Below are positions 2,050-35,203 of a stretch of DNA of 64,000 nucleotides, in pieces (within the stretch, counting starts at the first letter, position 1; the number at the start of each line of letters is the position of its first letter). The stretch covers positions 4,227 through 68,226 of IMG/VR virus record IMGVR_UViG_3300020577_001581, one strand, 5' to 3'. Source of the stretch: a virus. Its lineage: Duplodnaviria > Caudoviricetes. Position numbers and translations under genes: made by a program. Under the pieces are notes generated by a model. That model had not been told where the DNA came from. It saw only the letters and a program-made list of their open reading frames with translations, and made no database searches.

Positions 2050-2126
2050 AGAGAGTTAGTTTAGTTGGAAAAACAATACTCAATTCACGGGTGAGTATTA
2101 CACTGGTTCGACTCCAGTACTCTCTT
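2050..2126 (+). ncRNA. tRNA-like RNA with elongated anticodon arm
   Basis: Acceptor AGAGAGT/ACTCTCT; D-arm GTTT-AGTTGGAA-AAAC; 7-bp stem ATACTCA/TGAGTAT around 9-nt loop ATTCACGGG; T-arm ACTGG-TTCGACT-CCAGT. Confidence 0.7.
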
Positions 2127-2158
2127 CTGTTCTAACACTAGTATGAGGCGAGTGTATC

Positions 2159-4592: not shown

Positions 4593-5045
4593 ATGAAAAT
4601 GTCATTTGTTACTAAAGATGTTACTATTGTTTGGGAAAAGGGCCACTATCCTACAAAAAAGAGTTACGATAGAGTACATAAAGATTCATTAGTTTACAAA
4701 GAAATATTTGCAATAGTTCTAGTTAATCACTTTCCCCCAGGAAATGTATGGAATGGATACCGTATATATTCCTTACGTACAAAACATTTTGTAACTAAAC
4801 TAGGTTCACAAAACTTAGACACTTTAAAGAAACTTTGTGAATATCTTCTTAAAGATTACTATGGAGTATTCCGACAAGATGATGTAGCAAAGTTTCAAAA
4901 TCAAATGTATGTACGTTATGGAACTACTTCACTTGATCAAATGGAAGAATGGTTAAAGGAATTGACTTTTAAAAATAAACCATTCTATCCTTTGACAATC
5001 AAAGTAACAAAAGAAATTGAGGAAATAGAAGATGAGCAAGAGTAA
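4593..5045 (+). CDS. hypothetical protein
   Basis: 150-aa ORF tightly packed in the operon. Confidence 0.65.
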   Translation: MKMSFVTKDVTIVWEKGHYPTKKSYDRVHKDSLVYKEIFAIVLVNHFPPGNVWNGYRIYSLRTKHFVTKLGSQNLDTLKKLCEYLLKDYYGVFRQDDVAKFQNQMYVRYGTTSLDQMEEWLKELTFKNKPFYPLTIKVTKEIEEIEDEQE

Positions 5046-5610
5046 GCTGCAACTACATCTAGATAATTGGAAAGATTGTACTAGATGCAAACTACATGAG
5101 GTTAGACGTAATGTAGTTTTGCTACGTGGAACAGTACCGTGTGATATCCTGTTCATAGGTGAAGCTCCAGGAGAGTCAGAGAACGCGTTAGGTAAGCCTT
5201 TTAGAGGCCCTGCAGGCAATCTGTTACAAGAGATCATAGAAGTTACTCAGCAGCATACAAAAGGCTACACCTACGCAATGACTAACCTTATCGGATGCAT
5301 ACCCAAAGTAGATGGAGAGAAGCTAACTAGTCCACCGAAAGAATCTGTCACAGCATGCTTTCCACGTATCAACGAACTAGTTGAATTATGTAATCCAAAA
5401 GGATTAATATTAGTTGGAAATGATGCTCAAAAGTTTTTTGAACTACATAACAATAAACTACTACAACAAATAAAATTTATTAAGATTCAACATCCAGCAG
5501 CTATTTTACGTAAACCACAAGTATCATGGGGATTAGATTGTCAAAAAATTGAAATACAAATAACTGACTTTATAGAAGAATTGTACGGAGATAATAATGC
5601 TACTAATTAA
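5032..5610 (+). CDS. family 4 uracil-DNA glycosylase
   Basis: CTRC Fe-S ligands, FIGEAPG motif A, F.GPAG, TNLIGC.P, HPAAILR motif B. Confidence 0.92.
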   Translation: MSKSKLQLHLDNWKDCTRCKLHEVRRNVVLLRGTVPCDILFIGEAPGESENALGKPFRGPAGNLLQEIIEVTQQHTKGYTYAMTNLIGCIPKVDGEKLTSPPKESVTACFPRINELVELCNPKGLILVGNDAQKFFELHNNKLLQQIKFIKIQHPAAILRKPQVSWGLDCQKIEIQITDFIEELYGDNNATN

Positions 5611-9025: not shown

Positions 9026-11140
9026 ATGTTGGCGATAGATACTGAGACTACTGGAGTAGATTTCTATCATGGTGCTAGACCTTTCTTTGTTAGTATGTGT
9101 AATACAGAAGGTGAAGTTACATATTGGGAATTTGAAGTAAATCCTAAAACACGTCAAGTCATTTACAAAGAAGATGATTTAAAAGACATAGCAAACGTAA
9201 TGAAGCAAGAAAAAGATGGTTACTTGCTTCATAATTGTATATTCGATTATAATGCATTAGCATCTATAGGATTGTGGAAATATATAGACATTAATGAAGT
9301 ATTCGACAAAACACATGATACACTTCTGACTGCACATCTTTTACATAGCAATAAAGAAAAATCATTAGATAATATGTGTCTTCGTTGGCTTAATCTAGAC
9401 ATAACAAAGTATGAAAAAGATCTAGAGAAAGCTGTAAAGTATTGTCGTACACACGCTAAAGATTTAGGATGGAAGATAGCAAAGAAAGATAAAGAAGATG
9501 AAAATAGTATGCCCAGTGCAATAGATAAAACTTGGCAGTATGATTATTGGTTACCTAAAGCATTAGCTAAAAAATTGAATTATCCTGAAGATCATAAGTA
9601 TTACACTGTACTTCAAAAGTATGCATTACCAGACGTAGAAGTACTTAATCATCTTAATAGACGTTTACAAAAAGAAGTACGTCAACGTAAATTAGGAGCT
9701 CTATTAGATGAACGTAGAAAGCTTCTAAAAATTACTTACAATATGCAGCGAACAGGTATTACAGTATCTAGTAAAACGTTAGATAAAGTAAAAAATGAAT
9801 TCATAACAGAATCAACTAACTTAGCTACAAAATGTGTTAACATAGCAAAGTGTTTTAACTATGACTTAGTACTTCCTAAAGGAGGTTCTAACAAGTCATT
9901 AAATAGTTTTATGCTTGATACTCTCAAGTTACCGCCCAGGTACAGTAAAAAAGCTAAAACAAATAAACCATGTCTTGATAAGAATGTAATGTTACATTAT
10001 CAAGAGACATTGCCACAACGTAGTATTAGTTTGTTATTTATTAACAGTCTTCTTAGTAAGCGTGCAAGAGATGTTGCAGTTTCTTACATGAAGAGTTATC
10101 AACGTTTTTGGTTACCTACTGAACATAGTGATTATTTTGTATTACATCCTTCTCTTAATTTAACAGGTACTAATACATTACGTTGTTCATCTTCTCATCC
10201 TAATGAACAGAATATTTCTAAACGAGAAGGATTTAATGTACGTCAATGTTTTGGACCTAAACCTGGAAGAGAGTGGTGGTCATTAGACGGTAAGAATGTG
10301 GAATTGCGTATTCCAGCGTATGAATCAGGACAAAAAGAGTTTGTAGATTTATTTGAAAAACCTGATGAACCTCCTTACTATGGATCGAATCACCTTCTTA
10401 TATTTCATGTGTTATGGCCTGATTTATGGGAAGCTGCCGTAAAAGAAATAGGAGAGGAACAGGCTGGAAACTATTGCAAGAAAAAATACAATAGTACATA
10501 CTACCAATGGACCAAAAATGGAAACTTTGCAATCCAATATGGAGCTGTTGATAGAGAAGATGGAGAAGGTACAGCAGATAGAGCATACCATCAGGTAGGA
10601 GCTCACAGTAAGTTAAAGAAACGATTTACTAAACAAGAGCAGTTAAATCAATACTGGCTTAAGTTTGCTAATAAACATGGTTATGTCGAAACTATACCAG
10701 ACAAGAATGTTGATCCAACCAGAGGGTATCCATTACTTTGTAAACGAACAGATTATGGACGTGTTAAACCTACAATTCCATTGTCTTACCATGTTCAAGG
10801 TACGGCAATGTGGTTAACTGCTAGATGTAAGGTAGAAGTATCTTATAAACTAGAAGACTACCATAAACTAGATGGATTAGATTACTATTTGATTATGGAA
10901 GTACATGATGAAATTGTTTTAGATTTTCCTGCTAAAGGTAAGGAGGCCCTAGAATACGATCTTTCCCAGGAGAAATTAGCTAAGCAGAAAAATACTAAGG
11001 TATTGAATTATCGTTCGAATTTGGGTAAAATTAGAGAACTACAGAAGATAATGGAAAAGTGTGGAGAAGGTTTAAGTATACCTACTCCTTTTGGTGCTGA
11101 GTATCACGAAACAAACTGGGCAAAAGGTATTACAGTATGA
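9026..11140 (+). CDS. polA: family A DNA polymerase with 3'-5' exonuclease, no 5'-3' exonuclease
   Basis: Exo I DTETTG, Exo II HN..FD, Exo III Y...D; motif A DGKNVELR, motif B KNGNFAIQYG, motif C VHDE. Confidence 0.95.
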   Translation: MLAIDTETTGVDFYHGARPFFVSMCNTEGEVTYWEFEVNPKTRQVIYKEDDLKDIANVMKQEKDGYLLHNCIFDYNALASIGLWKYIDINEVFDKTHDTLLTAHLLHSNKEKSLDNMCLRWLNLDITKYEKDLEKAVKYCRTHAKDLGWKIAKKDKEDENSMPSAIDKTWQYDYWLPKALAKKLNYPEDHKYYTVLQKYALPDVEVLNHLNRRLQKEVRQRKLGALLDERRKLLKITYNMQRTGITVSSKTLDKVKNEFITESTNLATKCVNIAKCFNYDLVLPKGGSNKSLNSFMLDTLKLPPRYSKKAKTNKPCLDKNVMLHYQETLPQRSISLLFINSLLSKRARDVAVSYMKSYQRFWLPTEHSDYFVLHPSLNLTGTNTLRCSSSHPNEQNISKREGFNVRQCFGPKPGREWWSLDGKNVELRIPAYESGQKEFVDLFEKPDEPPYYGSNHLLIFHVLWPDLWEAAVKEIGEEQAGNYCKKKYNSTYYQWTKNGNFAIQYGAVDREDGEGTADRAYHQVGAHSKLKKRFTKQEQLNQYWLKFANKHGYVETIPDKNVDPTRGYPLLCKRTDYGRVKPTIPLSYHVQGTAMWLTARCKVEVSYKLEDYHKLDGLDYYLIMEVHDEIVLDFPAKGKEALEYDLSQEKLAKQKNTKVLNYRSNLGKIRELQKIMEKCGEGLSIPTPFGAEYHETNWAKGITV

Positions 11141-11337
11141 ATAATGAAATAGAAAAACTATGTAAAGAATTAGATATCCCAGTAACAATATTTGTATCTA
11201 CACCAGAAACAGAAGATAGTAAAATACTACGTGAACGATTAGAAGCTTTAGAAAAAGCTGATGAAGAAAAAAGAAATTTCTATAAACAAAAGTTAGAAAA
11301 ATTTTATAAAGAAAAATTAAAAAGTATTATGAAATAA
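11137..11337 (+). CDS. hypothetical coiled-coil protein
   Basis: ATGA overlap with polA stop. Confidence 0.6.
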   Translation: MNNEIEKLCKELDIPVTIFVSTPETEDSKILRERLEALEKADEEKRNFYKQKLEKFYKEKLKSIMK

Positions 11338-11365
11338 ATTACTAAACAAGTAATAAGAGGTTACT

Positions 11366-11662
11366 ATGTTACAATTTATGAAGATTGATAATATTGCTAA
11401 TGTAGCTTTAATTGTAGAAGAAGTAATAAGAACATATGATATAGATATAAATAATCCTAATAATTTAGAATCTGTTTATTTAGGTGTTTGTACATCAAAC
11501 AAATTAAAACATCTAGATAAATTTCAAGTAAGACAATTATATTACTTAGGTTGTATGTTACGTCAATCTAAACCATGGATAGCATTCGCTGCTATGTTTG
11601 AAAATTGGGACTATATACATGTCATTAATACGTTAGCTGCTAATGAAAAAGAGAATGTATGA
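11366..11662 (+). CDS. hypothetical protein
   Basis: GAGG SD; ATGA-coupled to next gene. Confidence 0.6.
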   Translation: MLQFMKIDNIANVALIVEEVIRTYDIDINNPNNLESVYLGVCTSNKLKHLDKFQVRQLYYLGCMLRQSKPWIAFAAMFENWDYIHVINTLAANEKENV

Positions 11663-12516
11663 ACATTAATGAAGTTCGTGGATTACCAGTAGAAGAAAGA
11701 TTCTTGTATTGGATTAAAGAACGTGAATCTATACGTAAGAAAAAAGAAGGTGAATTAGCTAGACCTTGGACAGATGATGAAATTCTTCATACGTATAGAT
11801 TTTGTAATGTTCGTAGAATGGATGACAAAGTAAGTAAATGGTTACAAAATAATTGGTATACTCCATATAAAGATAATTATAATATGTTATATGGAGTAGC
11901 AATAGCTCGTTTTATTAACTTACCAAAAACATTAAAACAAATAGAATCTGATATATTTAAAACTAATTATATAAACTATGAAAAACTAGTAGAAAAAATT
12001 AGAAATATAAAAAAGAAACAAGGTGTTATATTTAATGCTGCTTATGTTGTACGTGGAAACGACGGAGCTGATAAAATAGAATCAGTTATCATAGCAAACG
12101 TTAAACCATTACAAACTAAGCGAGTGTTCATTGATACTAGTTCAATGTACTATACCTGGAAAGAATTATGTAATTGTTTTGGTTTTGGTTCATTCATGGC
12201 TGGTCAAGTTACAGCAGACTTGAGACATGCTCTAACAGGTGAATGGAAAGATAAACTATCATGGGCACCAGAAGGTCCAGGCTCACAAAGAGGACTACAA
12301 AGACTTAAGAAACAACCTATTAACGCTATTAATCGTCATTGGTTAAAAGATTTTAGGAGTATAATTCTAAACGGGTTAGCATTAAATCTTCCCCAGGAGA
12401 TTACAGGACGATTAGAGGCACATGATTATCAAAACTGTTTATGTGAATTTGATAAATACGAAAGAATGTTACACGGACAAGGTAGACCTAAACAAAAATA
12501 TAAAAGAGATAAATAA
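11659..12516 (+). CDS. DNA base hypermodification protein, aGPT-Pplase / 5-hmdU DNA kinase helical-domain family
   Basis: ERE.IR.KK......PWTDD.IL..YRFCNV.R.DD, G.F.A.Q...DL, GPGS.RGL, QNCLCEFDKY.R. Confidence 0.8.
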   Translation: MNINEVRGLPVEERFLYWIKERESIRKKKEGELARPWTDDEILHTYRFCNVRRMDDKVSKWLQNNWYTPYKDNYNMLYGVAIARFINLPKTLKQIESDIFKTNYINYEKLVEKIRNIKKKQGVIFNAAYVVRGNDGADKIESVIIANVKPLQTKRVFIDTSSMYYTWKELCNCFGFGSFMAGQVTADLRHALTGEWKDKLSWAPEGPGSQRGLQRLKKQPINAINRHWLKDFRSIILNGLALNLPQEITGRLEAHDYQNCLCEFDKYERMLHGQGRPKQKYKRDK

Positions 12517-12522
12517 TAAACA

Positions 12523-13632
12523 ATGAGAATAGCTTGCATATATTGGTATACTAAAAGTGTAGGAGGTATTGCTACACATTTAAATTCATTACGTTTAGCA
12601 GCTACAGCAAATGGTGATACATTCGACATATTACATAGTAGAAACTGGAAAAATAAAAAACCTTGTTTGTTTCCTAAACGTAAATGGATAAATGGTGGTG
12701 ATACTAAAATATGGGTAGATGGAGAAGTACCACAAACTGAAGAAGCTGCTAAATGGTTAAATAATAACTATGATGCAATCTTTTATGGTTTTATATGTCC
12801 ACACAAAAATAAAGGGTATGAAGAACCACACTTTAAAGTGTTATATCTTGAATGTACATTACCTAAAATAGCTTTTGTAATGGATGGATACTGGGATGAT
12901 TACTCAGACTGGAGTGAACCAGTAGCTAAGTATTGTAGAGCTATCTTTTGTCCGTTAGAATCCTATGCTATGCCATTACGAAACAAAGGTATACCTAGGG
13001 TAAAGATTAGTCCATTTCCATTTATACCTAAAGATAATATAAAATCAGATAGATCAAAAGAACCGTTATTAGTTTGGCCTAATCAATGGAAAGAAATTAA
13101 AGGTACTAATACATTCTTAAAAGTACTTCCACAAATACCACAAGAAGTAAACATAGAAATGTATTCAACAGGAATACAGTATTTTCGTTTACGTAGTACA
13201 AAAGAGTGGAAGAAAGGAGTAGGATTAGACTGTTATGATACTAAATATTCAGGAGATGGTAAGGCTATTTATTATGGTAATGTTGATTTAGATACTATAA
13301 TTAAAGCTTATCAAGAAGCCTGGTTTACTGTTAACTTACAAGGTGTAACATCTAGACGTGATACATATAAAGCAGGAAGTTATAATAACACTGAAGTAGA
13401 AGCATTATATTATGGAGCTATTCCTATATTACATTCTAGTGTATTAAAAACTGATATACCTAAAGAATGTATAGCTACTGTACGCAATGCTTATAAGTTA
13501 CCTGATGTAATTAAAACTCTTATAAGTAATAAAACGATACAAGATCCAGTACGTAGAAAACGAGCTAAAGAATTTGTATTAGATAAACACTTAGCATACA
13601 AAACTTACAAAGATATAAGGAACGTTTTATGA
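12523..13632 (+). CDS. GT-B (GT4-like) glycosyltransferase
   Basis: N-terminal GGIATH loop; LLVWPNQW..IKG; C-terminal EALYYGAIPI. Confidence 0.7.
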   Translation: MRIACIYWYTKSVGGIATHLNSLRLAATANGDTFDILHSRNWKNKKPCLFPKRKWINGGDTKIWVDGEVPQTEEAAKWLNNNYDAIFYGFICPHKNKGYEEPHFKVLYLECTLPKIAFVMDGYWDDYSDWSEPVAKYCRAIFCPLESYAMPLRNKGIPRVKISPFPFIPKDNIKSDRSKEPLLVWPNQWKEIKGTNTFLKVLPQIPQEVNIEMYSTGIQYFRLRSTKEWKKGVGLDCYDTKYSGDGKAIYYGNVDLDTIIKAYQEAWFTVNLQGVTSRRDTYKAGSYNNTEVEALYYGAIPILHSSVLKTDIPKECIATVRNAYKLPDVIKTLISNKTIQDPVRRKRAKEFVLDKHLAYKTYKDIRNVL

Positions 13633-14486
13633 GTTTAGATTACACTATCTACATTCCTACGTGGGGTAGAGAAATTATAGAAACTGTAAAACAATTTACT
13701 ATTCCTATGTTAAACAATACTGTAATAGTAACTACATCAGACTGGAAAGATAAAATAATATTACCTCAAAATAATCAAATAAAACTAGTTACATTTGGAA
13801 GTAATAAAGGAGCATTGTATGCAAAACAAAATATTCTAGATTTTGTTAAACAAAACACTACATCAAAAGTACTTATATTGCTTGATGATGATTTACGTTT
13901 TGTTTATCATAATGGAATATTAGAAGAAGGTAGAAAAAGATTTAAACGAACCAAACCACAAGAACTAGAAGACTGTTTTACTGATATGGTAAACAGAATT
14001 CAATCTGAACCAGATCTAGGATTCATAAGCTTTAGTACTCCATACTTCAATCGATCAAAAGATAAGATAGAGGAATGCTGCTTTCCTAATGCCTCATTCA
14101 TCATAAATCTAGAGGTACAAAAAAAGACAGGAGCTAAGTTCATCGGACATGGTTTACAGACGCGAGAAGATGCTTTATTCGCTCTTACAACGTGGATAGC
14201 AGGTTATCGTAGCGAAACATACACTTGTCACGCAGTAGAGAATAGTGGTAGATCTGACGTAGGTGGAGAATCACTAGTGAATCCAATTGATGGAAAGCTA
14301 TTAGAAGGTAGGATACAGAGAGGAGCTAGAACAGAACAAGCACATAAGAAACTAAAAGAATTGTTTCCTAAATATACTACACTATATGAAAAGAAAAATA
14401 ATAGAATGAAAGAAGTAGGCACTACCGTAGAAATTAAAATCTACGGTAAGAAAGCCTACAAAGAAAATAAGCATAAAGTTAAGTAG
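13629..14486 (+). CDS. GT-A glycosyltransferase, TET-associated (TAGT/GREB1/J-glucosyltransferase-like)
   Basis: IYIPTWGR, LLDDDL.F DxD motif, EDALF, GG..L. Confidence 0.75.
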   Translation: MSLDYTIYIPTWGREIIETVKQFTIPMLNNTVIVTTSDWKDKIILPQNNQIKLVTFGSNKGALYAKQNILDFVKQNTTSKVLILLDDDLRFVYHNGILEEGRKRFKRTKPQELEDCFTDMVNRIQSEPDLGFISFSTPYFNRSKDKIEECCFPNASFIINLEVQKKTGAKFIGHGLQTREDALFALTTWIAGYRSETYTCHAVENSGRSDVGGESLVNPIDGKLLEGRIQRGARTEQAHKKLKELFPKYTTLYEKKNNRMKEVGTTVEIKIYGKKAYKENKHKVK

Positions 14487-14814
14487 TCTTCTTAGCTTCT
14501 GCCTTTTGTTCTTTCTTCTGCTTAGTCTTATAAGCTTTTATGAATTTAACACCTTGACGTGTTAAACATAAAGGCTTATGAATTTCTTCATCTAAAGTAC
14601 GTGCAGTCATACTTGGAGTCATATTTCGAAGGATGTAAATTTGATGTGGAATGTTCCACGTAACTCCTTGTTTACCTAATTCCTTTATAATAATATCTTC
14701 GCTAATATGACTCATGGCATCAATTGCACGATACTTGTAAAGTACTTCCATGATCATAATAAGCTTAGGTGACATGTTGTCAAGTGTTCGCTTCATGTAA
14801 TCTTTAGTTGCCAT
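14479..14814 (-). CDS. basic winged-helix-like DNA-binding protein, antisense to the operon
   Basis: Own promoter and GGAG SD; LT..G wing-like motif; Lys-rich tail. Confidence 0.6.
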   Translation of the reverse strand: MATKDYMKRTLDNMSPKLIMIMEVLYKYRAIDAMSHISEDIIIKELGKQGVTWNIPHQIYILRNMTPSMTARTLDEEIHKPLCLTRQGVKFIKAYKTKQKKEQKAEAKKTT

Positions 14815-14871
14815 CAGCTAAACTCCAGAATTTTAATTAATGACTAGACCAGCTCTAGTCCTACATGTTAT

Positions 14872-14900
14872 ATTATACAAGATACTGGAACAGTAGTCAA
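14872..14900 (-). promoter_or_regulatory. sigma70-type promoter (minus strand)
   Basis: TTGACT-N17-TATAAT upstream of 14479-14814. Confidence 0.7.
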
Positions 14901-14942
14901 ACAAAAAACACCAGAATTCGAAAGATTTTTAAAGAAGATTTT

Positions 14943-15581
14943 ATGAAGAAAAATGATTCAAAAAAAGATATCATAATCATCGAACCTCATTGCGATGATG
15001 CTTTCCTGTCGCTGGGATGGCACATAGAAAAATGGAAAAAAGATTTTAATATAACTATCATTACAGTATTCTGTAATCCAAAACGAGCAATTGAAGCAGC
15101 TAACTATGCAAAATCATTAGATATTAATAGTATTGTAATTAAACCTTTTCTCCAGGAAACAGAAATGTTAGGAGAATATACAATTAATACTATTAATCCT
15201 ATATTAAACTATTTAGTAGACAATTGTTTATACAATAAAAAATATAACATACAAACTATTTTATGTCCTATAGGATTACAACATCCTGATCATAAAAATA
15301 TAAGATTTACTTTAGATAGTGGATTAATTAAATCTAAAGAATTAGTACAATATTACTTAGATACACCTTATCAAAGTAAACAAAAATTAGCTGGTGAATT
15401 ACTTGAAAATGTAAAAGGTTATGTGATAGAATCTATATTATATCCTAATGCTAGGAAATGGAGACATTGTGTAACATTTAAAAGTCAAGCAAAGTTTTTT
15501 CATTTTAACAAAGAACTTAAAGAATCAATATTACCAGAAATTATTATAAGGAGTATAAATGTTAACAACGATACTAATTGA
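14943..15581 (+). CDS. PIG-L/LmbE-family N-acetylhexosamine deacetylase
   Basis: EPHCDD and HPDH metal/catalytic motifs; start moved to 14943 because the upstream part overlaps the reverse promoter. Confidence 0.8.
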   Translation: MKKNDSKKDIIIIEPHCDDAFLSLGWHIEKWKKDFNITIITVFCNPKRAIEAANYAKSLDINSIVIKPFLQETEMLGEYTINTINPILNYLVDNCLYNKKYNIQTILCPIGLQHPDHKNIRFTLDSGLIKSKELVQYYLDTPYQSKQKLAGELLENVKGYVIESILYPNARKWRHCVTFKSQAKFFHFNKELKESILPEIIIRSINVNNDTN

Positions 15582-16164
15582 TATGGATGAAGTGTTAACA
15601 GACTTTGTAGGAGCATATTGTAAATATGTATACGGAATTACCAGACAGAATCTAGAAAAATACTGGGAACCTGGTGAATATGGCATGCAACTTGCTCTAT
15701 CAAAATACACAGGAAAAGAAATAACTGAAGAAGATTTTTATAAAGCTATTGATAATCAAGTAGATTTTTGGGAAAATATGCCATGGACAAATTGGGGTAG
15801 ATTACTTATAGAAGTAATAGAAGGTTACAAAAGATTATACAAAGGGGAAATAGACTGGCATATTGTTACCTCTCCTGTTCATTGTGCCAGTAGTTACGTA
15901 GGTAAAACATTGTGGCTTAAACGAGAGTTTGGTAAAGAATTTAATAACTTTGCCATTACTCCACACAAAGAATTATTTGCTAAACAAGGAACTTATCTTA
16001 TAGATGATAGAGAATATAATGTAAATAAGTTTAGACAATTAGGAGGTAAAGCGTATTTATTTCCTGCTTATCATAATTCACATAAAATGAATTACGAGTA
16101 TATAATTTCTATTAAAGATTATTTACTACAACATCTGTCTGTTAATATTGGAAAGGAACTATAA
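15559..16164 (+). CDS. 5'(3')-deoxyribonucleotidase, HAD family
   Basis: IDMDEVLTDF motif I, TSP motif II, K, LIDD motif IV. Confidence 0.85.
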   Translation: MLTTILIDMDEVLTDFVGAYCKYVYGITRQNLEKYWEPGEYGMQLALSKYTGKEITEEDFYKAIDNQVDFWENMPWTNWGRLLIEVIEGYKRLYKGEIDWHIVTSPVHCASSYVGKTLWLKREFGKEFNNFAITPHKELFAKQGTYLIDDREYNVNKFRQLGGKAYLFPAYHNSHKMNYEYIISIKDYLLQHLSVNIGKEL

Positions 16165-16165
16165 A

Positions 16166-17311
16166 ATGCATTTTCGAACAAAGAATGTTAATACAGCATT
16201 CAAAAAACTGGTTACTTTATTCCATTACAGTAAAGATAGTAATATTGTAAAGGAGCAATCACGTAATGGACCAGTATTAATGTGTGTAGAGCCTGTTACA
16301 CTTACTTACAATAATCCGTTAGAAAGAGTATTATTTAATCCTAAACGTGATTGTAATCCTTTCTTTCATATGTATGAAGCTTTGTGGATGTTAGCTGGAA
16401 GGAATGATGTAAAGTCATTATCTACTTACACTTCCAAGATGGCACAATATTCAGACGATGGCATTACGTTCAATGGAGCATATGGTAAACGATGGTATAA
16501 GTATGTTGCTACTGAAAAGAAAATTACTGAAAATGAAACAACTACTTATCAGTATGAAGTATCTAATCAGCTTACCAGATTAATAAATCATCTAAAAGCT
16601 AATCCTACATCAAGACGTGCAGTCTTACAAATGTGGGATGTTTATGATGATTTAGAAAAAGTAGATACATCTAAGGATGTGTGTTGTAATCTTTCTGTAT
16701 GTTTTAGTATTAGAACAGTTACAGAACCTGATCAAAATTATTTAATCGATTCAAACAAGATGTATAAAACTGTTTCATACCTGGATATGACAGTATTTAA
16801 TCGTAGCAATGATTTGATAAAAGGTATGTTAGGAGCTAACTACGTACATTTTACTTTCCTCCAGGAATATATTGCAGAATGTTTAGAAGTAAAAGTAGGA
16901 AAGTATAATCAGATAAGTAATAATTTACATGTTTATCCAGATGCTATTTGGAAGCCTATTGAATGGTTAAAATGTAATACAGACATGTATGCTACTAAAC
17001 CTTCATTCGATAAACATATTCCACTATTACACAATGTTACTAAATTAGAATTTGATAGAGAATTACAAGATGTTGTAACTATGTGTGGAAATATAAAAAC
17101 TCTTAAAAAAGTAAATCCTAATGATTATAAATCATGTTTTATTAAAACAGTAGCAATACCAATGTTTAAAGCATATGCTTATTATAAAGAACCAGAGTCA
17201 GAAATTAACCATTTAATGTATTCTTGGTTAGATGAAATTAATTTACCTGATTGGAAGCTAGCAGCTACACAATGGATAAATAATAGATTAAATAAACTTC
17301 AAAACAAATAA
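16166..17311 (+). CDS. thymidylate synthase homologue, probable dUMP hydroxymethyltransferase
   Basis: NPFF...EALWMLAGRND, YG.R, SRRAVLQMWD, DVCCN catalytic Cys, RSND...GAN, NNLHVY, C-terminal DW..A..W..R extension. Confidence 0.85.
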   Translation: MHFRTKNVNTAFKKLVTLFHYSKDSNIVKEQSRNGPVLMCVEPVTLTYNNPLERVLFNPKRDCNPFFHMYEALWMLAGRNDVKSLSTYTSKMAQYSDDGITFNGAYGKRWYKYVATEKKITENETTTYQYEVSNQLTRLINHLKANPTSRRAVLQMWDVYDDLEKVDTSKDVCCNLSVCFSIRTVTEPDQNYLIDSNKMYKTVSYLDMTVFNRSNDLIKGMLGANYVHFTFLQEYIAECLEVKVGKYNQISNNLHVYPDAIWKPIEWLKCNTDMYATKPSFDKHIPLLHNVTKLEFDRELQDVVTMCGNIKTLKKVNPNDYKSCFIKTVAIPMFKAYAYYKEPESEINHLMYSWLDEINLPDWKLAATQWINNRLNKLQNK

Positions 17312-17335
17312 CTATTTTAATTCTAAGGAGCTACT

Positions 17336-17968
17336 ATGTCTGAACAAAATTGGGATAATCAAATTGGTGGTAATCATTATCGTACAACAGAAGGTGAACA
17401 ACACTGGGATATGGTAGTGCGATTGTTTGGGTTAGAGGCAGCCAGAGGATACTTAGTCGGATGTGCTACTAAATATATGTTACGAGCTCATGTAAAAGAA
17501 GAAGGTAAGAATGAATTAGCAGATGTTGCAAAAGCTATTCACTATATGAACAAGTGGAAGTCTATTCTTGAAAAAGAAAGTAAAAAAGAATTTAAAACTA
17601 TTGTAATTAAACAAAAAGGATTAGAAGTAAAATATCCTACATCTGTTACATTATCTAATGGTACATATCTATGTGAAGATGTAGTATACTCATACCAGTA
17701 TGAGCAAGGATCTAATATCAGGACTGTATTTAAAGTATGTTCAGGATACTTTACAGCACTATTGAAGAACTTCTATAAACCTGATTTTACAACACTAGAA
17801 TTTAGTTGTGATTTTTGTAATATAACACTTGATAAAAATAATCATATTATAAATATCAATAAACTATATACATATACTACAACAACTATTAAGCAATTAG
17901 AAGCTGCTGACATATATCCAGCTAATGAAATAGAGATAGCAGCATTCGAAAAAGCAATGAAACGATAA
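17336..17968 (+). CDS. DUF3310/SaV-like domain protein
   Basis: QIGGNHY...G...KY..RA..K....D..KA.HY at the N-terminus. Confidence 0.75.
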   Translation: MSEQNWDNQIGGNHYRTTEGEQHWDMVVRLFGLEAARGYLVGCATKYMLRAHVKEEGKNELADVAKAIHYMNKWKSILEKESKKEFKTIVIKQKGLEVKYPTSVTLSNGTYLCEDVVYSYQYEQGSNIRTVFKVCSGYFTALLKNFYKPDFTTLEFSCDFCNITLDKNNHIININKLYTYTTTTIKQLEAADIYPANEIEIAAFEKAMKR

Positions 17969-17973
17969 GTATC

Positions 17974-18002
17974 TTGACATTTTATATAATATTCCTTATA
18001 AT
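17974..18002 (+). promoter_or_regulatory. consensus sigma70 promoter
   Basis: TTGACA-N17-TATAAT before the primase-helicase gene. Confidence 0.8.
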
Positions 18003-18056
18003 ATAAAGTATTGTAAGGAATATTATTTTTGTCTAAACAATCAATAAGGTAGGATA

Positions 18057-20297
18057 ATGTCTGATATACCAGAACCTCTAAAAGCTTTTACATTTCATGG
18101 TATGGATTTAAAAGTAGGTCCTACTCAGTCTACTGGTGAATGTCCGTTTTGTGGTAAGAATAAATTCTATGTATCTAATACATCTACTAAATGGGATTGT
18201 AAAGCTTGCGGTATGGCTGGTAACTCTCTAGAATTTATACGTAAGTTATGGGAAAAGTCTTTACCTGCATCAAAATGTGATGATGTAGAAGAATTCAAAA
18301 AAGATAGAAAATTATTATCTGTAGAGATTTTAGATCTTTGGGGTGTAAGGAAGTCTTTGTTAAATGGACAATGGATTGTACCTGGGTTCGCTCTATTTGG
18401 AAGAAAGCTACAACAGCTTTATCGCTATGCTACCATCAAAGGAGGCAAGCGGGCTCTTTTTGCTACTCCTGGTTTTAAACATGGTATTTTTGGTATGTGT
18501 AATTGGAATAATAAAGCTAAGGAAGTACATGCTTTAGAGGGACCGTGGGATGGAATGGCTTATCATGAAACTATGTTAAGCTTTAGAAAATCAGATACAG
18601 GAATTTCACCTACTAGTAATAAAGCAGTATCATTAGCAAACGATATCAATATTGTTGCATTTCCTGGAGCTAACGTATTCTCTGATGAATGGTCAAATAT
18701 AGGTGAATCACGTAAGCTAGTACTATTCTATGATAATGATCATGCTCGTAAAGAAAACGGTTCTACTATTATGGGAGCTGGTCGAGCAGGTTGTAAGAAG
18801 ACTGTAGAAAAGTTATGGAAAGCAGATAGTCCACCAAACGAGATTCATTATTTACAATGGAAAGAACCTGAAGGCTTTGATGCATCACTACCAAACGGGT
18901 ATGATGTTAGAGATATACTAACTAAAAAAGAACATACTAGTGTATTTCAACGTAAAGATACTCTAAAACTATTGCAATCAAAAATAAAACCTATTCCCCA
19001 GGAATGGATAAAGGGACGTACAACAGCTGCAGCAAAAGCAGGTAAAGTAGAGATATTACCATTAGCCTGTAACGAATGGACTATCTTACGTGAATCTTGG
19101 CGTAAGGCTATGAAATGGCCTGATCCTGGAGAAGGATTAGATTATGCACTAACGGTAATGCTAGCAAGTGTTATTTCTACAGAATCAGCAGGGGATCAAT
19201 TATGGGTTAAGATAATTGGACCAGCTGCATGTGGTAAATCAACATTGTGTGAAGCATTAGCTATTGCAAAGAAATACACAAGCAGTAAATCTACTATTAC
19301 AGGGTTTCATAGTGGATTCAAGACTGATTCTAAGGGACAAGTAGATAATTCTATTGTATCAGGACTATTTAATAAAACACTTATAACTAAGGATGGAGAT
19401 ACTTTACTTCAAGCTCCTAATATCAATCAGATCTTATCAGAAGCTAGAGATATCTATGATAGAGTATCTAGAGCACAATACCGTAATGGTGTATCTAGAG
19501 AATATGATCAAATTAATATGACCTGGATATTGTGTGGTACTTCATCATTACGTACATTAGATAGTTCTGAGTTAGGAGAACGTTTTTTATCTTGTATTAT
19601 TATGGATGGTATTGATGATGATTTTGAATATCAAATAGCAATGAGAGCAGCACAACAAGCAAAAATAGATATAGGTACACAAGCAGGACCAAAGACAGAG
19701 AATCCAGCTAAGATGATGGCACGACAATTAACAGGAGGATATGTAGAATATTTACGAGAGAACAGTATTGAACTTTTATCTAGTATCAATCTACCTGATG
19801 AATACTTAGATAGATGTGTTAGGTATGCAAAATTTGTAGCTATACTTCGTGCTAGACCATCGCTCAAACAAAATGAATCAGTAGAACGTGAATTCTCTAC
19901 ACGTTTAACTACTCAAATAGTAAGACTAGCAACAGCTGTTGCTGCTATATACAATTACAAGGAAGTAAATGAAGAAGTTATGCACATAGTCAAGAAAGTA
20001 GCTATAGATACATCTAAAGGATCAACGTTAGGTATTGTAAAATATCTATTCGAACATGGAGAGAAAGGAGCATCGTGGCAAGCTATTCAAATGAATTGCC
20101 ATTCTGAAGATGAAACACTTAAGGGATTAATTAAATTTCTTATTCGTATTAAAGTAGTAGAATCGTACGAACCGGAAATAATCTCATTCCGTAACAGGAC
20201 TACAAAAGGTCCTAAAAGATATCGTTTACCTCAAAAGATTTACGAACTTTATAAGTTTGTAATGGGTGGTAAAGAAGTGAAATTAACTAATCAATAA
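18057..20297 (+). CDS. primase-helicase (Zn finger + TOPRIM + P-loop ATPase)
   Basis: CPFC...CKAC, EGPWD, YDND, GPAACGKST. Confidence 0.85.
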   Translation: MSDIPEPLKAFTFHGMDLKVGPTQSTGECPFCGKNKFYVSNTSTKWDCKACGMAGNSLEFIRKLWEKSLPASKCDDVEEFKKDRKLLSVEILDLWGVRKSLLNGQWIVPGFALFGRKLQQLYRYATIKGGKRALFATPGFKHGIFGMCNWNNKAKEVHALEGPWDGMAYHETMLSFRKSDTGISPTSNKAVSLANDINIVAFPGANVFSDEWSNIGESRKLVLFYDNDHARKENGSTIMGAGRAGCKKTVEKLWKADSPPNEIHYLQWKEPEGFDASLPNGYDVRDILTKKEHTSVFQRKDTLKLLQSKIKPIPQEWIKGRTTAAAKAGKVEILPLACNEWTILRESWRKAMKWPDPGEGLDYALTVMLASVISTESAGDQLWVKIIGPAACGKSTLCEALAIAKKYTSSKSTITGFHSGFKTDSKGQVDNSIVSGLFNKTLITKDGDTLLQAPNINQILSEARDIYDRVSRAQYRNGVSREYDQINMTWILCGTSSLRTLDSSELGERFLSCIIMDGIDDDFEYQIAMRAAQQAKIDIGTQAGPKTENPAKMMARQLTGGYVEYLRENSIELLSSINLPDEYLDRCVRYAKFVAILRARPSLKQNESVEREFSTRLTTQIVRLATAVAAIYNYKEVNEEVMHIVKKVAIDTSKGSTLGIVKYLFEHGEKGASWQAIQMNCHSEDETLKGLIKFLIRIKVVESYEPEIISFRNRTTKGPKRYRLPQKIYELYKFVMGGKEVKLTNQ

Positions 20298-20325
20298 TAG
20301 AAATAATTTACAAGTAAAGGACAGT

Positions 20326-20862
20326 ATGTCTATATTAACTGGGCCTGAAATACAAAAACAAGTATATTCAGGTAATATAAAAATAGATCCTTTTGTTGTT
20401 GCAAATATTAACCCTAACAGTTATAATCTATCTATAGGAACTAAAATACTGGAGACATGTGGACTAGAGTATTATATAGACAAAAGAGGCAACAAACGAT
20501 ATAAACCTACATTCAAACAATTAGAAATAACAAATAATGGTTTATATCTTTATCCAGGAAAAGGTTATCTTGCTGCTAGCGTAGAAGTAACTAATAGCGG
20601 TAATTATGTTCCTGAAATTGACGGTAGATCAAGTTTAGGAAGATTATTTACATTAGTTCATTGTACAGCAGGATATGGGGATATAGGATTTAATGGTACT
20701 TGGACATATGAAATAGTTCCATTAGTACATGAAATAATTGTATATCCTGGTGATATGTTATGTCAAATACGATTCACTACCAGTATAGGAGATATACTAC
20801 CTTATGATCAAACAGGTAGATATCAAAATCAAATAGATCCTACAGAATCAAAAGGTATATAA
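20326..20862 (+). CDS. dcd: dCTP deaminase
   Basis: INPNSYNLSIG, GRSSLGRL, AGYGDIGFNG..T.E, GRYQNQ..PT.S. Confidence 0.9.
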   Translation: MSILTGPEIQKQVYSGNIKIDPFVVANINPNSYNLSIGTKILETCGLEYYIDKRGNKRYKPTFKQLEITNNGLYLYPGKGYLAASVEVTNSGNYVPEIDGRSSLGRLFTLVHCTAGYGDIGFNGTWTYEIVPLVHEIIVYPGDMLCQIRFTTSIGDILPYDQTGRYQNQIDPTESKGI

Positions 20863-22484: not shown

Positions 22485-22557
22485 GGGACTATAGCTCAAC
22501 GGTAAGAGCAGGAGACTCATAATCTCTTGGTTCTAGGTTCGAATCCTAGTAGTCCCA
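22485..22557 (+). tRNA. tRNA-Ile2 (CAT anticodon, lysidine type; Met cannot be excluded)
   Basis: Canonical cloverleaf GGGACTA/TAGTCCC; anticodon arm GGAGA-CT-CAT-AA-TCTCT resembles enterobacterial ileX; no encoded CCA. Confidence 0.85.
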
Positions 22558-22579: not shown

Positions 22580-23260
22580 ATGTTTAATTATTATGGTAGT
22601 AAATCTAAAATAGTACATAAATATCCTAAACCAAAATATAATCTTATTATTGAACCATTTGCTGGTGCTGCATATTATAGTGTATTACATAATACACATC
22701 AAGTTCATTTAAATGATAAATATAAAACTATTGCAGGTATTTGGCAATTTCTTATAAAAGATGCTACACCGGAACTTATATTAAAATATAGTAAATTTTA
22801 TGTAGGTGATAATATACAAACTCTTAATATAGATAAAAGACATAAAAATTTAATAGGATTTTGTATAAATCATGGAGTGTCTTCTCCAAAATATACTGTT
22901 ACAGAATTTACTGTAGGTAAAAAACAATTTCCTAAATATGCAAGTATAACAAAATTTAGATTAAAAGACATAGCAAATAATTTAGAAAAAATTAGACATT
23001 GGAAAATATCATCTAAAGGGTTTCATGAATTACCTAACATAGAAGCTACTTGGTTTATAGATCCGCCGTATCAAAAAGGTGGACAATTTTATAAACATAA
23101 TAAAATAAATTATAAAATATTAGCTGACTGGTGTAAATCTAGAAAAGGTCAAGTAATTGTTTGTGAAAATAATAGTGCAACTTGGATGGATTTTAAACCA
23201 TTAATAAAAATACAAGGTATAAAACATAAAACGTTAGAATGTATTTGGACAAATGATTAA
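22580..23260 (+). CDS. DNA adenine methyltransferase (Dam/D12-like)
   Basis: Y.GSK, EPFAGAA motif I, IDPPY motif IV. Confidence 0.9.
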   Translation: MFNYYGSKSKIVHKYPKPKYNLIIEPFAGAAYYSVLHNTHQVHLNDKYKTIAGIWQFLIKDATPELILKYSKFYVGDNIQTLNIDKRHKNLIGFCINHGVSSPKYTVTEFTVGKKQFPKYASITKFRLKDIANNLEKIRHWKISSKGFHELPNIEATWFIDPPYQKGGQFYKHNKINYKILADWCKSRKGQVIVCENNSATWMDFKPLIKIQGIKHKTLECIWTND

Positions 23261-32039: not shown

Positions 32040-32747
32040 ATGATAACATTTGGTTCATTATTTAGTGGTATAGGTGGATTAGATTTAGGTTTTGAGAGAG
32101 CAGGATTTAAATGTATTTTTCAAGTAGAAAAAAATCCGTATTGTAGAAAGATACTTAAAAAACACTGGCCTAATACTTTACAATTTAATGATGTTAAGAC
32201 TTTTTTAAAAGGAGATGATAATTGGAAAATCCAGATATCCTCATTGGAGGATTCCCCTGTCAAGACGTTTCAATGGCAGGAAAAAGAAAAGGTATTACAG
32301 GCGATAGATCTGGCTTGTGGAAAGAATTTTATAGGATCATTTGCACGATTAGACCAAAGTACATTGTTGTGGAAAACGTGCATGGCTTGTTGGTTTCAGA
32401 GAAAAAGACTAGGACACAAGCACCGATTGGAACAGTTCTTGCAGACATTTCCCAGTCAGGGTATGATGCGGAATGGTGTACTTTATCAGCGAAAGATGTG
32501 GGAGCAACCCACAAACGAGCAAGAATATTTATTATTGCCTACTCCAACATTGTCAGCAAGAGACTGGCGTTCGACCAGGTATTGCGAAAAGGTATGGAAA
32601 AGAAAAAATTACAGGCCATTAAACGAGTTTGTATACAAGATGACAAACAAAAGCCTTTATTCGAAGGTTTCGGCTTCTGGGGTATTAAATCCGAACTGGT
32701 GCCAATGGTATATGGGATTCCCCCCAAATTGGTTAAAAATCAAATAA
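32040..32747 (+). CDS. C5 cytosine methyltransferase polypeptide A (motifs I-III fused to TRD/motif IX)
   Basis: SLFSGIGG, VE, D at the N-terminus; LPTP..RD and LNPNWCQWYMGFP at the C-terminus. Confidence 0.75.
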   Translation: MITFGSLFSGIGGLDLGFERAGFKCIFQVEKNPYCRKILKKHWPNTLQFNDVKTFLKGDDNWKIQISSLEDSPVKTFQWQEKEKVLQAIDLACGKNFIGSFARLDQSTLLWKTCMACWFQRKRLGHKHRLEQFLQTFPSQGMMRNGVLYQRKMWEQPTNEQEYLLLPTPTLSARDWRSTRYCEKVWKRKNYRPLNEFVYKMTNKSLYSKVSASGVLNPNWCQWYMGFPPNWLKIK

Positions 32748-35119: not shown

Positions 35120-35203
35120 GCGGGATTGGTGGAACTGGCAGACACAATAGACTTAAAATCTATCGATCGTAAGATCATATGGGTTCAAATCCCATATCCC
35201 GCA
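35120..35203 (+). tRNA. tRNA-Leu (TAA)
   Basis: GCGGGAT/ATCCCGC acceptor; ATAGA-CT-TAA-AA-TCTAT; long variable arm; T-arm GGTTCAAATCC; no encoded CCA. Confidence 0.92.

Follow-up and report, generated by a model that had tools for sequence, protein, structure and literature searches.

A cassette in a 68-kb IMG/VR phage contig, lying in the interval from polA to the primase gene, appears, on balance and with slightly better than even confidence, to encode a new type of thymidine hypermodification, in which 5-hydroxymethyluracil (hmU) in DNA would be O-glycosylated with an N-acetylhexosamine (HexNAc) and then de-N-acetylated to a cationic hexosamine, sometimes with a second sugar. The stretch analysed, referred to here as the window, comprises 64,000 nucleotides (positions 4,227-68,226 of record IMGVR_UViG_3300020577_001581, Caudoviricetes). 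All of the genes named in an initial annotation of this DNA were recovered by ORF calling, on the forward strand and where it had placed them (Table 1). The cluster does follow polA, though not directly, as two small ORFs (11137-11337 and 11366-11662) intervene; likewise, a gene is present where a primase had been named beyond the cluster, but the matches supporting its identity are weak. PolA is 41-44% identical to PolA of sister contigs, and the putative primase gene 39-43% identical to its counterpart in loci L003 and L004. The reverse-strand ORF inside the cassette has no match in Pfam or PHROG, and in sister loci the same slot holds reverse-strand genes unrelated to it. The phage is uncultured, and its setting is freshwater and wastewater.

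Table 1. Features of the cassette and associated genes, in window coordinates
Feature	Coordinates	Strand	Evidence or remark
Uracil-DNA glycosylase (UDG), encoded in trans	5032..5610	+	PF03167 1e-21
Family A DNA polymerase (PolA) with 3'-5' exonuclease domain	9026..11140	+	PF00476 6.8e-25; PF01612 2.3e-06
Clade-1 aGPT-Pplase / HMUDK_hel helical protein	11659..12516	+	PF18723 1.9e-39
GT-B glycosyltransferase, GT4-like, retaining-type	12523..13632	+	AF2 model, Foldseek, VIA
TAGT-family GT-A glycosyltransferase, DDD motif	13629..14486	+	PF20691 5.5e-06; phrog_842 7.8e-13
111-aa ORF inside cassette	14479..14814	-	interrupts cluster
PIG-L/LmbE-family zinc deacetylase	14943..15581	+	relatives with PF02585; conserved zinc motifs
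HAD/NT5C 5'-deoxyribonucleotidase	15559..16164	+	PF06941 6.7e-06; phrog_2643 2.3e-14
Thymidylate-synthase (TS) homologue, dUMP hydroxymethylase signature	16166..17311	+	PF00303 1.6e-18; phrog_5131 5.9e-95
DUF3310 protein	17336..17968	+	PF11753 2e-05
Putative primase(-helicase), 746 aa	18057..20297	+	zinc-ribbon matches; phrog_47 DNA primase 3e-07
dCTP deaminase	20326..20862	+	PF22769 3.1e-29; phrog_1663 3.6e-34

The supply of hmU can be read from family signatures. Scored at diagnostic positions taken from PMC13326640, the TS homologue has Asp where E. coli ThyA has L143 (L143->D) and retains C146, D169 and N177; its identity to the M6/YuA-type enzymes is 37%, M6/YuA-like hmU phages hold its best cultured relatives, and MilA is its closest solved structure. 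The protein thus reads as the dUMP hydroxymethylase that had been supposed, and the retained N177 points to a uracil-derived rather than a cytosine-derived base. Its reading frame opens at TTG 16148, and ATG 16166 is probably the start. The NT5C protein, whose gene precedes TS in L003, L011, L012 and L013, is possibly a dTMP-depleting phosphatase, and the UDG likely serves to exclude dU from DNA while dUMP/dUTP pools are high; in phages with modified T, UDG is described either as a trans-encoded protein or as a PolA fusion (PMC13697223). The DUF3310 protein was rejected as a nucleotide kinase, given that its PHROG 'nucleotide kinase' matches span the DUF3310 part only and it contains no kinase domain. 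The contig yielded no identifiable dUTPase, MazG, dNMP kinase or dTTP-exclusion enzyme, and the lack of the first and the last two makes full replacement of T uncertain.

The GT-B protein has no match in Pfam or PHROG. Its AF2 model (pLDDT 95.4, pTM 0.91) adopts a GT-B/GT4 fold, and Foldseek retrieves glycogen synthase, T4 alpha-glucosyltransferase (AGT), BshA and MshA (E 1e-12 to 1e-9), bearing out the identity first assigned to it. VIA ranks T4 AGT at the top (1xv5, Z 27.0, rmsd 4.0, 338-342 residues aligned, the most of any), tied with BshA, MshA, HepE and PimA. The rank of T4 AGT speaks for action on DNA, and BshA and MshA are GlcNAc transferases partnered by LmbE-family deacetylases, which fits the proposed two steps. 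Given the tie with BshA, HepE and PimA, the fold does not separate DNA from small-molecule GT4 enzymes. Residues G14-G15, K193 and E293 are invariant among 75 relatives, and the enzyme is proposed to start the glycosylation of hmU in DNA, with HexNAc as the probable first sugar. The GT-A enzyme scores 26.9 bits against PF20691, 0.6 bit below the cut-off; its TAGT-like identity is nonetheless confirmed by its relatives, 20 of 22 of which match TAGT (best 6e-22), and by the invariance of D86-D87-D88, the DDD motif, among them. Similarly, the window copy of the deacetylase (ORF opening at 14865; start probably at 14943, which matches the 212-aa database call) reaches 11 bits against PF02585, below the Pfam threshold. 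Its assignment to PIG-L stands on the 68 relatives, many with PF02585 (15 of 21 tested match it), on a match of the family profile to teicoplanin GlcNAc deacetylases in the PDB (2.4e-08, spanning the N-terminal motif only), and on the HxDD and HPDH motifs, in which H16, D18, D19 and H117 are invariant and H114 is kept in at least 90%. Its proposed role is de-N-acetylation of DNA-bound HexNAc.

Seven contexts of the GT4 gene were examined: the window, L003, L004/5, L006/7, L010, L011 and the P0047 contig. The genes for HMUDK_hel, GT4 and the TS homologue are adjacent in all seven, in varying order and on two phage backbones, L010 representing the different one. PIG-L is found in five, adjoining GT4 with reading frames that often overlap or abut, and 19 contig sizes are common to the lists of GT4 and PIG-L relatives; TAGT, present in three, is an optional second glycosyltransferase. 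A strain about 96% identical, from an activated-sludge run of another study, carries the whole cassette collinear. Independent metagenome contigs repeat the same set, and chance therefore does not explain the arrangement. In L006/L007, GT4 is present with no detectable PIG-L, so that deacetylation is not obligatory for the family. This observation is also consistent with glycosylation of hmU by a neutral hexose, as a base-J- or T4-like glucosyl-hmU, such that no amino-sugar base would form and PIG-L would have another substrate, such as a host envelope glycan, a nucleotide sugar or a non-N-acetyl amide. Such an arrangement fits the structural ranking of GT4, in which T4 AGT and several glucosyltransferases stand near the top, the inclusion of the base-J glucosyltransferase family among TAGT relatives, and the weakness of the window PIG-L against Pfam. 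It is nevertheless rather unlikely in light of the close linkage of PIG-L to GT4 and the conservation of its zinc and catalytic motifs; moreover, the PIG-L/LmbE enzymes that have been characterised remove an N-acyl group, by hydrolysis, from GlcNAc-type substrates that a partner glycosyltransferase has built.

In sister phages with the same backbone, whose HMUDK_hel is 51-56% identical to that of the window, the same slot holds an amino-acid:DNA transferase (AADT), a PLP enzyme and a P-loop kinase whose identity to PaMx11 gp49, a proven 5-HMUDK, is 34-37%, and GT4 is absent. The GT4 loci examined have neither kinase nor AADT, and the whole 68-kb contig contains no 5-hmU DNA kinase and no AADT. 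Occupation of one slot by either set implies that GT4/PIG-L(/TAGT) is a swapped-in alternative cassette, which adds support to the sugar modification first suggested. Whether these enzymes act on DNA at all must be weighed as well, since bacillithiol and mycothiol synthesis both begin with a GT4 enzyme followed by a PIG-L enzyme. Together with the structural proximity of BshA and MshA to the window GT4 and the action of TarP-type phage GT-A relatives on teichoic acid (bioRxiv 10.1101/2023.12.21.572611), this would fit auxiliary genes for remodelling the surface glycans of the host (teichoic acid, LPS or capsule) or for making a small molecule such as a bacillithiol/mycothiol-like GlcN conjugate. 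Such a role is improbable: the genes lie within a replication and nucleotide-metabolism module, they stay beside HMUDK_hel and the hydroxymethylase through several gene orders and two backbones, and they share their slot with a proven DNA-modifying kinase/AADT set, while neither a third enzyme of a thiol pathway nor any membrane or secretion feature was detected.

The helical protein does belong to the aGPT-Pplase/5-HMUDK-helical family, as first annotated, but to clade 1 and not to the characterised transferases. It is an orthologue of PaMx11 gp50 (32% identity, 2e-40) and has no sequence similarity to gp46, and was on these grounds rejected as an amino-acid:DNA transferase. Its AF2 model (pLDDT 93.3) has an HhH-glycosylase-like fold, the closest structure being gp46 (8z2n, Z 11.6, rmsd 4.2, 224 residues aligned), although for an all-helical protein this Z is under the safe level for fold matches. 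Cys262-Glu263 is invariant in 42 sequences, and the Cys aligns with an EVExxLC motif that occurs in gp50 and, in gp46, at the catalytic-Cys region. A predicted complex of GT4 with HMUDK_hel scores 0.59 (best of three controls, 0.00), the runs agreeing in at least 95% of contacts with partner pLDDT of at least 86. Of 80 solved complexes 58 attain the mark for such scores, as do 2 of 110 mismatched pairs, and 7 of the 80 solved complexes, as well as both mismatches, pass at 0.60 or less; the prediction thus lends weak support to a contact. The invariant Cys, the gp46 resemblance and the predicted contact would accommodate a group-transfer role for this protein, in which, by way of the Cys as in the clade-2 transferase, the hexosamine amine would be joined, N-linked, to the C5-methylene, with GT4 and PIG-L supplying or pre-positioning the nucleophile rather than making the final O-glycoside. 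This is very doubtful, given that the contig has no kinase and thus no phosphate leaving group, that the M6 clade-1 paralogue is dispensable for transfer in vitro (PMC8989533), and that the same protein serves kinase-type cassettes. Indeed, the window copy is as near to kinase-locus copies (51-56% identity) as to GT4-locus copies (28-51%), which counts against a GT4-specific partnership. The clade-1 protein constantly accompanies the hydroxymethylase, irrespective of the chemistry that follows, and most likely it handles hmU in DNA through recognition or base flipping, possibly with Cys-dependent chemistry, rather than serving the sugar step in particular.

In the pathway proposed here, dCTP deaminase would provide dU nucleotides, the TS homologue would convert dUMP to 5-hydroxymethyl-dUMP, NT5C and UDG would help exclude dT and dU, and hmdU would be built into DNA, replacing T wholly or in part. 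The steps proposed to follow replication draw on fold, motifs and gene linkage: GT4 would move an N-acetylhexosamine from a nucleotide sugar to the 5-CH2-OH of hmU in DNA, in parallel with T4 AGT on hmC, and PIG-L would strip the acetyl group to leave a protonatable hexosamine. Where present, as in the window, TAGT would add a further sugar, with either the first one or other hmU residues as acceptor, and none of this would need a kinase or phosphate activation. The overall interpretation in the initial annotation gains partial support from the gene identities, the hydroxymethylase signature, the absent amino-acid route, the shared slot and the GT4 and PIG-L parallels. What is shown here are the gene identities and their conserved arrangement, from which the chemistry is inferred.

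The closest precedents are instructive in both likeness and difference. Glucosyl-hydroxymethylcytosine in T4 is made by a dCMP hydroxymethylase and alpha/beta-glucosyltransferases, and the window would share this division into pre-replicative hydroxymethylation by a TS homologue and post-replicative glycosylation of DNA; however, the T4 base is cytosine-derived, GT4 has no detectable sequence similarity to AGT, and the additional deacetylase implies an amino sugar. In kinetoplastids, base J (beta-D-glucosyl-hydroxymethyluracil) is made by a JBP dioxygenase and JGT, of the TAGT family. A glycosyl-hmU would likewise be the product type here and a TAGT-family enzyme is present, but hmU would arise in the nucleotide pool, no Tet/JBP dioxygenase is encoded on the contig, and among window relatives GT4 is constant and TAGT optional. 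MshA/MshB, BshA/BshB and PIG-A/PIG-L also combine a GT4-fold transferase with a PIG-L-family zinc hydrolase bearing HxDD and HxxH motifs, and the same two steps, GlcNAc attachment and freeing of the amine, would operate here on a DNA nucleobase rather than on inositol, malate or phosphatidylinositol, without later pathway enzymes such as a Cys ligase. The phage 5hmC glycans, built by C5-MT, TET/5mYOX and GT-A/GT-B enzymes, likewise combine TAGT/JGT-like GT-A with GT-B, and the sugars that these attach to a hydroxymethyl pyrimidine of DNA include hexose and HexNAc; metagenome GT-B matches are frequently near ThyS (PMC8256090, bioRxiv 10.1101/2023.12.21.572611). Those enzymes act on cytosine after TET oxidation, and term searches of these texts returned neither a deacetylase nor a clade-1 helical protein.

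The M6/PaMx11/ViI/PhiW-14 route comprises a dUMP hydroxymethylase, 5-HMUDK, a clade 2 aGPT-Pplase acting as amino-acid:DNA transferase, and tailoring enzymes (PMC5889632, PMC8989533). The window shares with it the TS-type hydroxymethylase, the adjoining clade-1 paralogue, the genomic slot seen in sister phages and, as far as the genes tell, post-replicative action on hmU in DNA. In place of kinase, transferase, PLP, rSAM and FAD enzymes it has two glycosyltransferases and a deacetylase, which would effect direct O-glycosylation rather than phosphate displacement. A further precedent is the oligosaccharide-modified thymidine of SP-15, YerA41 and Carin-5 (PMC12686479, PMC13697223). The initial remark that such a thymine modification is not known in phages requires amendment, since HexNAc-bearing thymidines beside a deacetylase gene have been reported there (PMC12686479), although in unrelated large phages and on a pentyl-type linker. 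These phages have dCTP deaminase, a TS homologue and a gene block with glycosyltransferases and a predicted GlcNAc deacetylase, and the window would share thymidine sugars including HexNAc. They differ in size (145-220 kb), in a UDG-fused PolA, in a sugar carried on a hydroxypentyl-type linker with phosphate, and in a deacetylase annotated as polysaccharide deacetylase, not PIG-L. Further, their DNA resists sequencing, whereas the window phage and its relatives assemble from ordinary shotgun libraries, so that any modification here is not sequencing-blocking as that of Carin-5 is (PMC12686479), a point against the proposed reading. A literature search found no paper on the present cassette; the nearest precedents are SP-15/Carin-5, base J, T4 and the phage 5hmC glycans. 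If the proposed pathway is true, its product would be an amino-sugar DNA base so far undescribed.

The gene cluster that the initial annotation had placed in this phage was confirmed by ORF, Pfam, and PHROGs checks, with each ORF lying where it had been assigned, and the NT5C nucleotidase, the thymidylate synthase (TS) homologue, the DUF3310 protein, and dCTP deaminase (dcd) were all identified by Pfam and PHROGs. Its placement directly after polA holds less strictly, as the cluster does follow polA but two short ORFs intervene. The source IMG/VR record is 68,226 bp long and about 95% complete by CheckV; the window covers its bases 4227-68226, has a GC content of about 32%, and carries nearly all genes on the + strand. 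Metagenomes of several studies, drawn from activated sludge, wastewater, rivers, and fresh water, contain near-identical sequence, and none of the public sequencing runs listed with this sequence in the search was of RNA. Beyond the cluster, the window holds three tRNA genes, a D12-class N6-adenine methyltransferase gene, and a C5-cytosine methyltransferase fragment; given the last two, the phage DNA may bear several kinds of modification.

Features of the window, with the evidence or remark attached to each
Feature	Position	Strand	Basis or remark
tRNA-Glu (TTC)	2050-2127		
UDG	5032-5610		separate gene, unfused to PolA
polA	9026-11140		Pfam/PHROGs; 704 aa, exonuclease and polymerase domains only
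HMUDK_hel (helical protein)	11659-12516		Pfam, 1.9e-39
GT4 glycosyltransferase	12523-13632		369 aa; no family-model match; structure model
TAGT	13629-14486		PF20691 just under cut-off; relatives match
Reverse-strand ORF	14479-14814	-	111 aa; inside cluster, no family match
PIG-L	14943-15581		probable start 14943 (corrected)
TS homologue	start 16166		probable start (corrected)
dCTP deaminase	20326-20862		Pfam/PHROGs
tRNA-Met (CAT)	22485-22557		
D12-class N6-adenine methyltransferase	22580-23260		3e-08
C5-cytosine methyltransferase fragment	32040-32851		4.6e-12; motifs I-III only
tRNA-Leu (TAA)	35120-35203		

The base on which such a cassette might act is suggested by the TS homologue. An alignment to E. 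coli ThyA, PaMx11 gp51, and homologues from related contigs shows that C146, D169, and N177 are retained in it and that the residue at the L143 position is Asp. Given that N177 specifies a dUMP substrate and an acidic residue at 143 a hydroxymethyl product (PMC13326640), the protein reads as a dUMP hydroxymethylase, and its best cultured relatives are those of M6/YuA-like phages (37%, full length). A 5-hydroxycytosine synthase or a dCMP hydroxymethylase is ruled out by D169 and N177, the 5-hydroxy-dCMP synthase branch being marked by D169N plus N177D (PMC13326640). The window thus shares the hydroxymethylase of the M6/PaMx11 pathway but neither its 5-hydroxymethyluracil (hmU) DNA kinase nor its amino-acid:DNA transferase (AADT). 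Searches for the kinase with PF18748, AAA_33, and the kinases of sister phages found no match on the 68-kb contig, and the same queries detected the kinase in three sister phages (L012, L013, and L014) and in PaMx11; PF18724, the AADT family, had no match on the whole contig. The DUF3310 protein was considered as the missing kinase and rejected, since its PHROG 'nucleotide kinase' matches span the DUF3310 part alone. Likewise, no Tet/JBP Fe(II)/2-oxoglutarate thymine dioxygenase (PF12851) was matched on the contig, which separates the window from the JBP/TET-dependent base J pathway. Nor was a dUTPase or MazG matched anywhere on the contig, the dCTP deaminase notwithstanding. MazG stands in place of dcd in the sister phages L003 and L004, the deaminase of locus L010 carries a faint dUTPase signal, and the window's own dcd may be bifunctional.

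The GT4 protein has 75 relatives at 38-59% identity, all supplied by the protein database; IMG/VR pattern searches with the GT4 and PIG-L proteins returned zero relatives, neither a nucleotide search with the cluster nor tblastn with the GT4 protein found a match among 50,697 phage records, and a PDB-chain sequence search with the GT4, TAGT, and HMUDK_hel proteins gave no useful match. A model built on the relatives (pLDDT 95.4) has a GT-B/GT4 glycosyltransferase fold, and its two Rossmann domains, together with a conserved N-terminal Gly-Gly loop, Lys, and Glu, bear out the original GT-B assignment. G14, G15, K193, and E293 are invariant in the family and, by analogy with GT4 enzymes at large, the G14-G15 loop, K193, and C-terminal E293 are probably donor-site residues. 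T4 alpha-glucosyltransferase (AGT) ranks first against the model by VIA-align (1xv5: Z 27.0, rmsd 4.0, 338 aligned), with HepE, BshA, PimA, and MshA within one Z unit of it and many GT4 enzymes at Z 25-27. Fold likeness, in which AGT is top but tied, and gene context together suggest that GT4 may, like T4 AGT, glycosylate a hydroxymethyl pyrimidine in DNA.

The two remaining enzymes of the cassette are clearer as families than as single proteins. Of the relatives of the TAGT-like GT-A enzyme, 20 of 22 match PF20691 (best 6e-22), and the DDD motif is invariant, which makes the family a TAGT member; this copy itself, at 26.9 bits against a cut-off of 27.5, falls 0.6 bit short. Similarly, the PIG-L copy is weak by itself (11 bits against PF02585), although 15 of 21 relatives match PF02585, the family profile finds teicoplanin GlcNAc deacetylases in the PDB (2.4e-08), and every PDB match to the copy itself (E 0.0095-0.75) is an LmbE-family deacetylase. 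The expected zinc and catalytic motifs are also present: H16, D18, and D19 of the N-terminal EPHCDDA motif (HxDD type) are invariant in the family, as is H117 of the HPDH (HxxH) motif, in which H114 is kept in at least 90% of sequences. GT4 GlcNAc transferases pair with LmbE-family deacetylases in MshA/MshB, BshA/BshB, and PIG-A/PIG-L. It is from the deacetylase alone, by analogy with this pairing, that the sugar transferred by GT4 would be a HexNAc.

That the glycosyltransferases and the deacetylase target hmU in DNA is argued most strongly by a comparison of related loci, and specifically by a cassette swap. HMUDK_hel and the TS homologue lie within a few genes of GT4 in all seven GT4-family contexts examined, and by tblastn over the loci GT4 is present in all seven, with PIG-L in five of them and TAGT in three. 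The gene orders (hel, helical protein; MT, methyltransferase; x, another gene) are hel-GT4-PIGL in L003, hel-MT-GT4-PIGL in L004 and L005, GT4-hel-TS in L006 and L007, GT4-PIGL-hel-TS in L010, hel-x-GT4-PIGL-TAGT in L011, and hel-TAGT-GT4 on the P0047 contig. The backbone of L010 differs, with SNF2 and Pam3-like genes, and profile comparison of two neighbouring ORFs in L006 found no PIG-L. The lists of GT4 and PIG-L relatives have 19 contig sizes in common. Neither kinase nor AADT was found in any of the six GT4 contexts searched by tblastn, including with the L012 AADT as query, or among the called genes of the P0047 contig. The methyltransferase of L004 (9465-10010) and L005 (5538-6083) is SAM-dependent (Methyltransf_23, 3e-06) and could perform a further tailoring step, for example on the freed amine. 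The closest HMUDK_hel relatives (51-56% identical) come from contigs of 57-76 kb whose backbone matches that of the window, namely UDG, PD-(D/E)XK nuclease, AAA_24, CsrA, PolA, and HMUDK_hel, followed further on by NT5C and TS. In L012 and L013, the stretch between HMUDK_hel and NT5C-TS holds a P-loop kinase, an AADT, and a PLP enzyme, joined in L012 by a weak radical-SAM-like gene and an amidoligase. Only the kinase is seen in L014, whose locus ends at the contig edge. In comparison with PaMx11, these kinases share 34-37% identity with gp49 and the L012 AADT shares 37% with gp46; none of the three loci contains GT4. Because the same locus is filled either by GT4/PIG-L (with or without TAGT) or by kinase/AADT/PLP enzyme, the two sets are alternative cassettes around a constant hydroxymethylase and helical protein.

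Several smaller features of these loci vary as well. At the position of the 471-aa weak radical-SAM-like gene of L012, the gene of L013 (8821-11244) is 807 aa long and contains an intein (PF14890). Just upstream of NT5C-TS lie reverse-strand genes without a family match, in the window, in L003 (9655-10077), and in L011 (12744-13576), and in the same slot of the kinase-type sisters L012 (13056-13676) and L013 (13001-13798); given that their proteins are mutually unrelated, this looks like a variable slot in an otherwise one-directional replication module. In an activated-sludge run from a different study, a 70-kb contig spans window positions 11525-17590 as a single collinear block that differs by about 4%, and the cassette is thus intact in a diverged strain. 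That approximately 96%-identical strain lacks orf66 (window 11137-11349), with five letters instead, and has the C-terminal part of DUF3310 replaced by 546 other letters (window 17590-18066).

The helical protein was correctly placed in the aGPT-Pplase/HMUDK_hel family, but the paralogue is of clade 1, the gp50 type, and not the clade-2 transferase. Current Pfam divides the two as PF18723 (HMUDK_hel, formerly clade 1) and PF18724 (ADDT, the amino-acid:DNA transferase, clade 2). Over its full length, the window protein matches PF18723 (136 bits, cut-off 25), its close relatives are labelled 'clade 1' by JGI, and it is 32% identical (2e-40) to PaMx11 gp50, which is encoded between kinase gp49 and TS homologue gp51. 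To gp46, the proven glycine:DNA transferase of PaMx11, it shows no detectable sequence similarity. In the M6 system, gp51 (clade 2) and the kinase gp54 were sufficient in vitro and gp55 was dispensable (Lee et al., PMC8989533). The model of the helical protein (pLDDT 93.3) is all-helical with an HhH-glycosylase-like fold. Foldseek alone found no significant match to it, and only VIA re-alignment placed gp46 first (8z2n: Z 11.6, rmsd 4.2, 224 aligned), followed by HhH DNA glycosylases at Z of about 8; Z values of this size are unsafe alone for helical proteins, but the gp46 match leads by three units and covers the chain from end to end. In 42 helical-protein sequences, Cys262-Glu263 is invariant, and Cys262 aligns with the (R/Q)EVExxLC motif common to gp50 and gp46, in the region that holds the clade-2 catalytic Cys (PMC8989533, PMC13458397). 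Given this alignment, the clade-1 protein may be catalytic, an enzyme beyond a DNA binder. The residues around it, 253-266 of the window protein, form an invariant clade-1 block, E..D..QNxLCEFDKY. A predicted complex of GT4 with the helical protein has weak support: it scores 0.59, against 0.00 for the best of three controls, with at least 95% contact agreement between runs and partner pLDDT of at least 86. Of 80 solved complexes, 58 passed the mark, as did 2 of 110 mismatched pairs, but passing scores of 0.60 or less came from only seven of the 80 solved complexes and from both passing mismatches. The helical protein is just as similar to copies beside kinases, which counts against its being a specific partner of GT4.

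The original reading of a glycosylated and deacetylated hmU is thus supported in part, by the gene identities, the hydroxymethylase residues, and the cassette swap. From family signatures, dCTP deaminase would feed a dU pool from which the TS homologue would make hmdUMP for incorporation into DNA; from fold, motifs, and linkage, GT4 would then place a HexNAc on the 5-CH2-OH of hmU in DNA, PIG-L would free the amine, and TAGT, in genomes having it, would attach another sugar. The cassette is likely to serve DNA-directed hmU glycosylation. A de-N-acetylated amino sugar as its product is only slightly favored, and the fullest version remains tentative: a kinase-free route to a cationic amino-sugar base, 5-(hexosaminyl-oxymethyl)uracil, sometimes with a second sugar, in which the clade-1 protein serves as a general hmU-DNA handling subunit for kinase or glycosyltransferase.

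The present cassette differs from each of its nearest known systems in at least one defining part. Literature searches for phage hmU combined with a glycosyltransferase and a deacetylase/LmbE protein, with Iyer et al. 2013 outside their scope, found no description of it. Closest are phage 5hmC glycans made via TET and GT-A/GT-B enzymes, for which metagenome GT-B matches often lie near ThyS (bioRxiv 10.1101/2023.12.21.572611). Next are SP-15, YerA41, and Carin-5, which have linker-borne oligosaccharides including HexNAc and a deacetylase gene (PMC12686479; PMC13697223); their A-family polymerase exceeds 900 aa with a fused N-terminal UDG, whereas the window's UDG is separate from its shorter PolA. 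Glycosylated 5-hydroxycytosine follows (PMC13326640), and base J and T4 also rank after the 5hmC glycans and the SP-15 group.

The potential implications extend beyond a single phage. Known thymidine hypermodifications comprise two groups, the amines and amino acids attached via phosphorylated hmU and the linker-sugar bases of SP-15-like phages, and hmU that is glycosylated directly and carries a freed amine would constitute a third route. Such a base would join T4-type sugar bulk to a positive charge like that of putrescinyl or aminoethyl bases, and both block restriction and CRISPR nucleases. If true, DNA would have its first amino-sugar nucleobase and viruses their first pool-derived, base-J-like glycosyl-hmU, and the clade-1 aGPT-Pplase, unexplained since 2013, would gain a role. 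The cassette enzymes are small and look soluble, and they could become 5hmU-labelling tools. More broadly, the family is present in wastewater, river, and freshwater metagenomes of several studies, and the swap at one locus is a natural experiment on clade-1 aGPT-Pplase function, showing phages trading DNA-modification chemistries while the hydroxymethylase and helical protein are retained.
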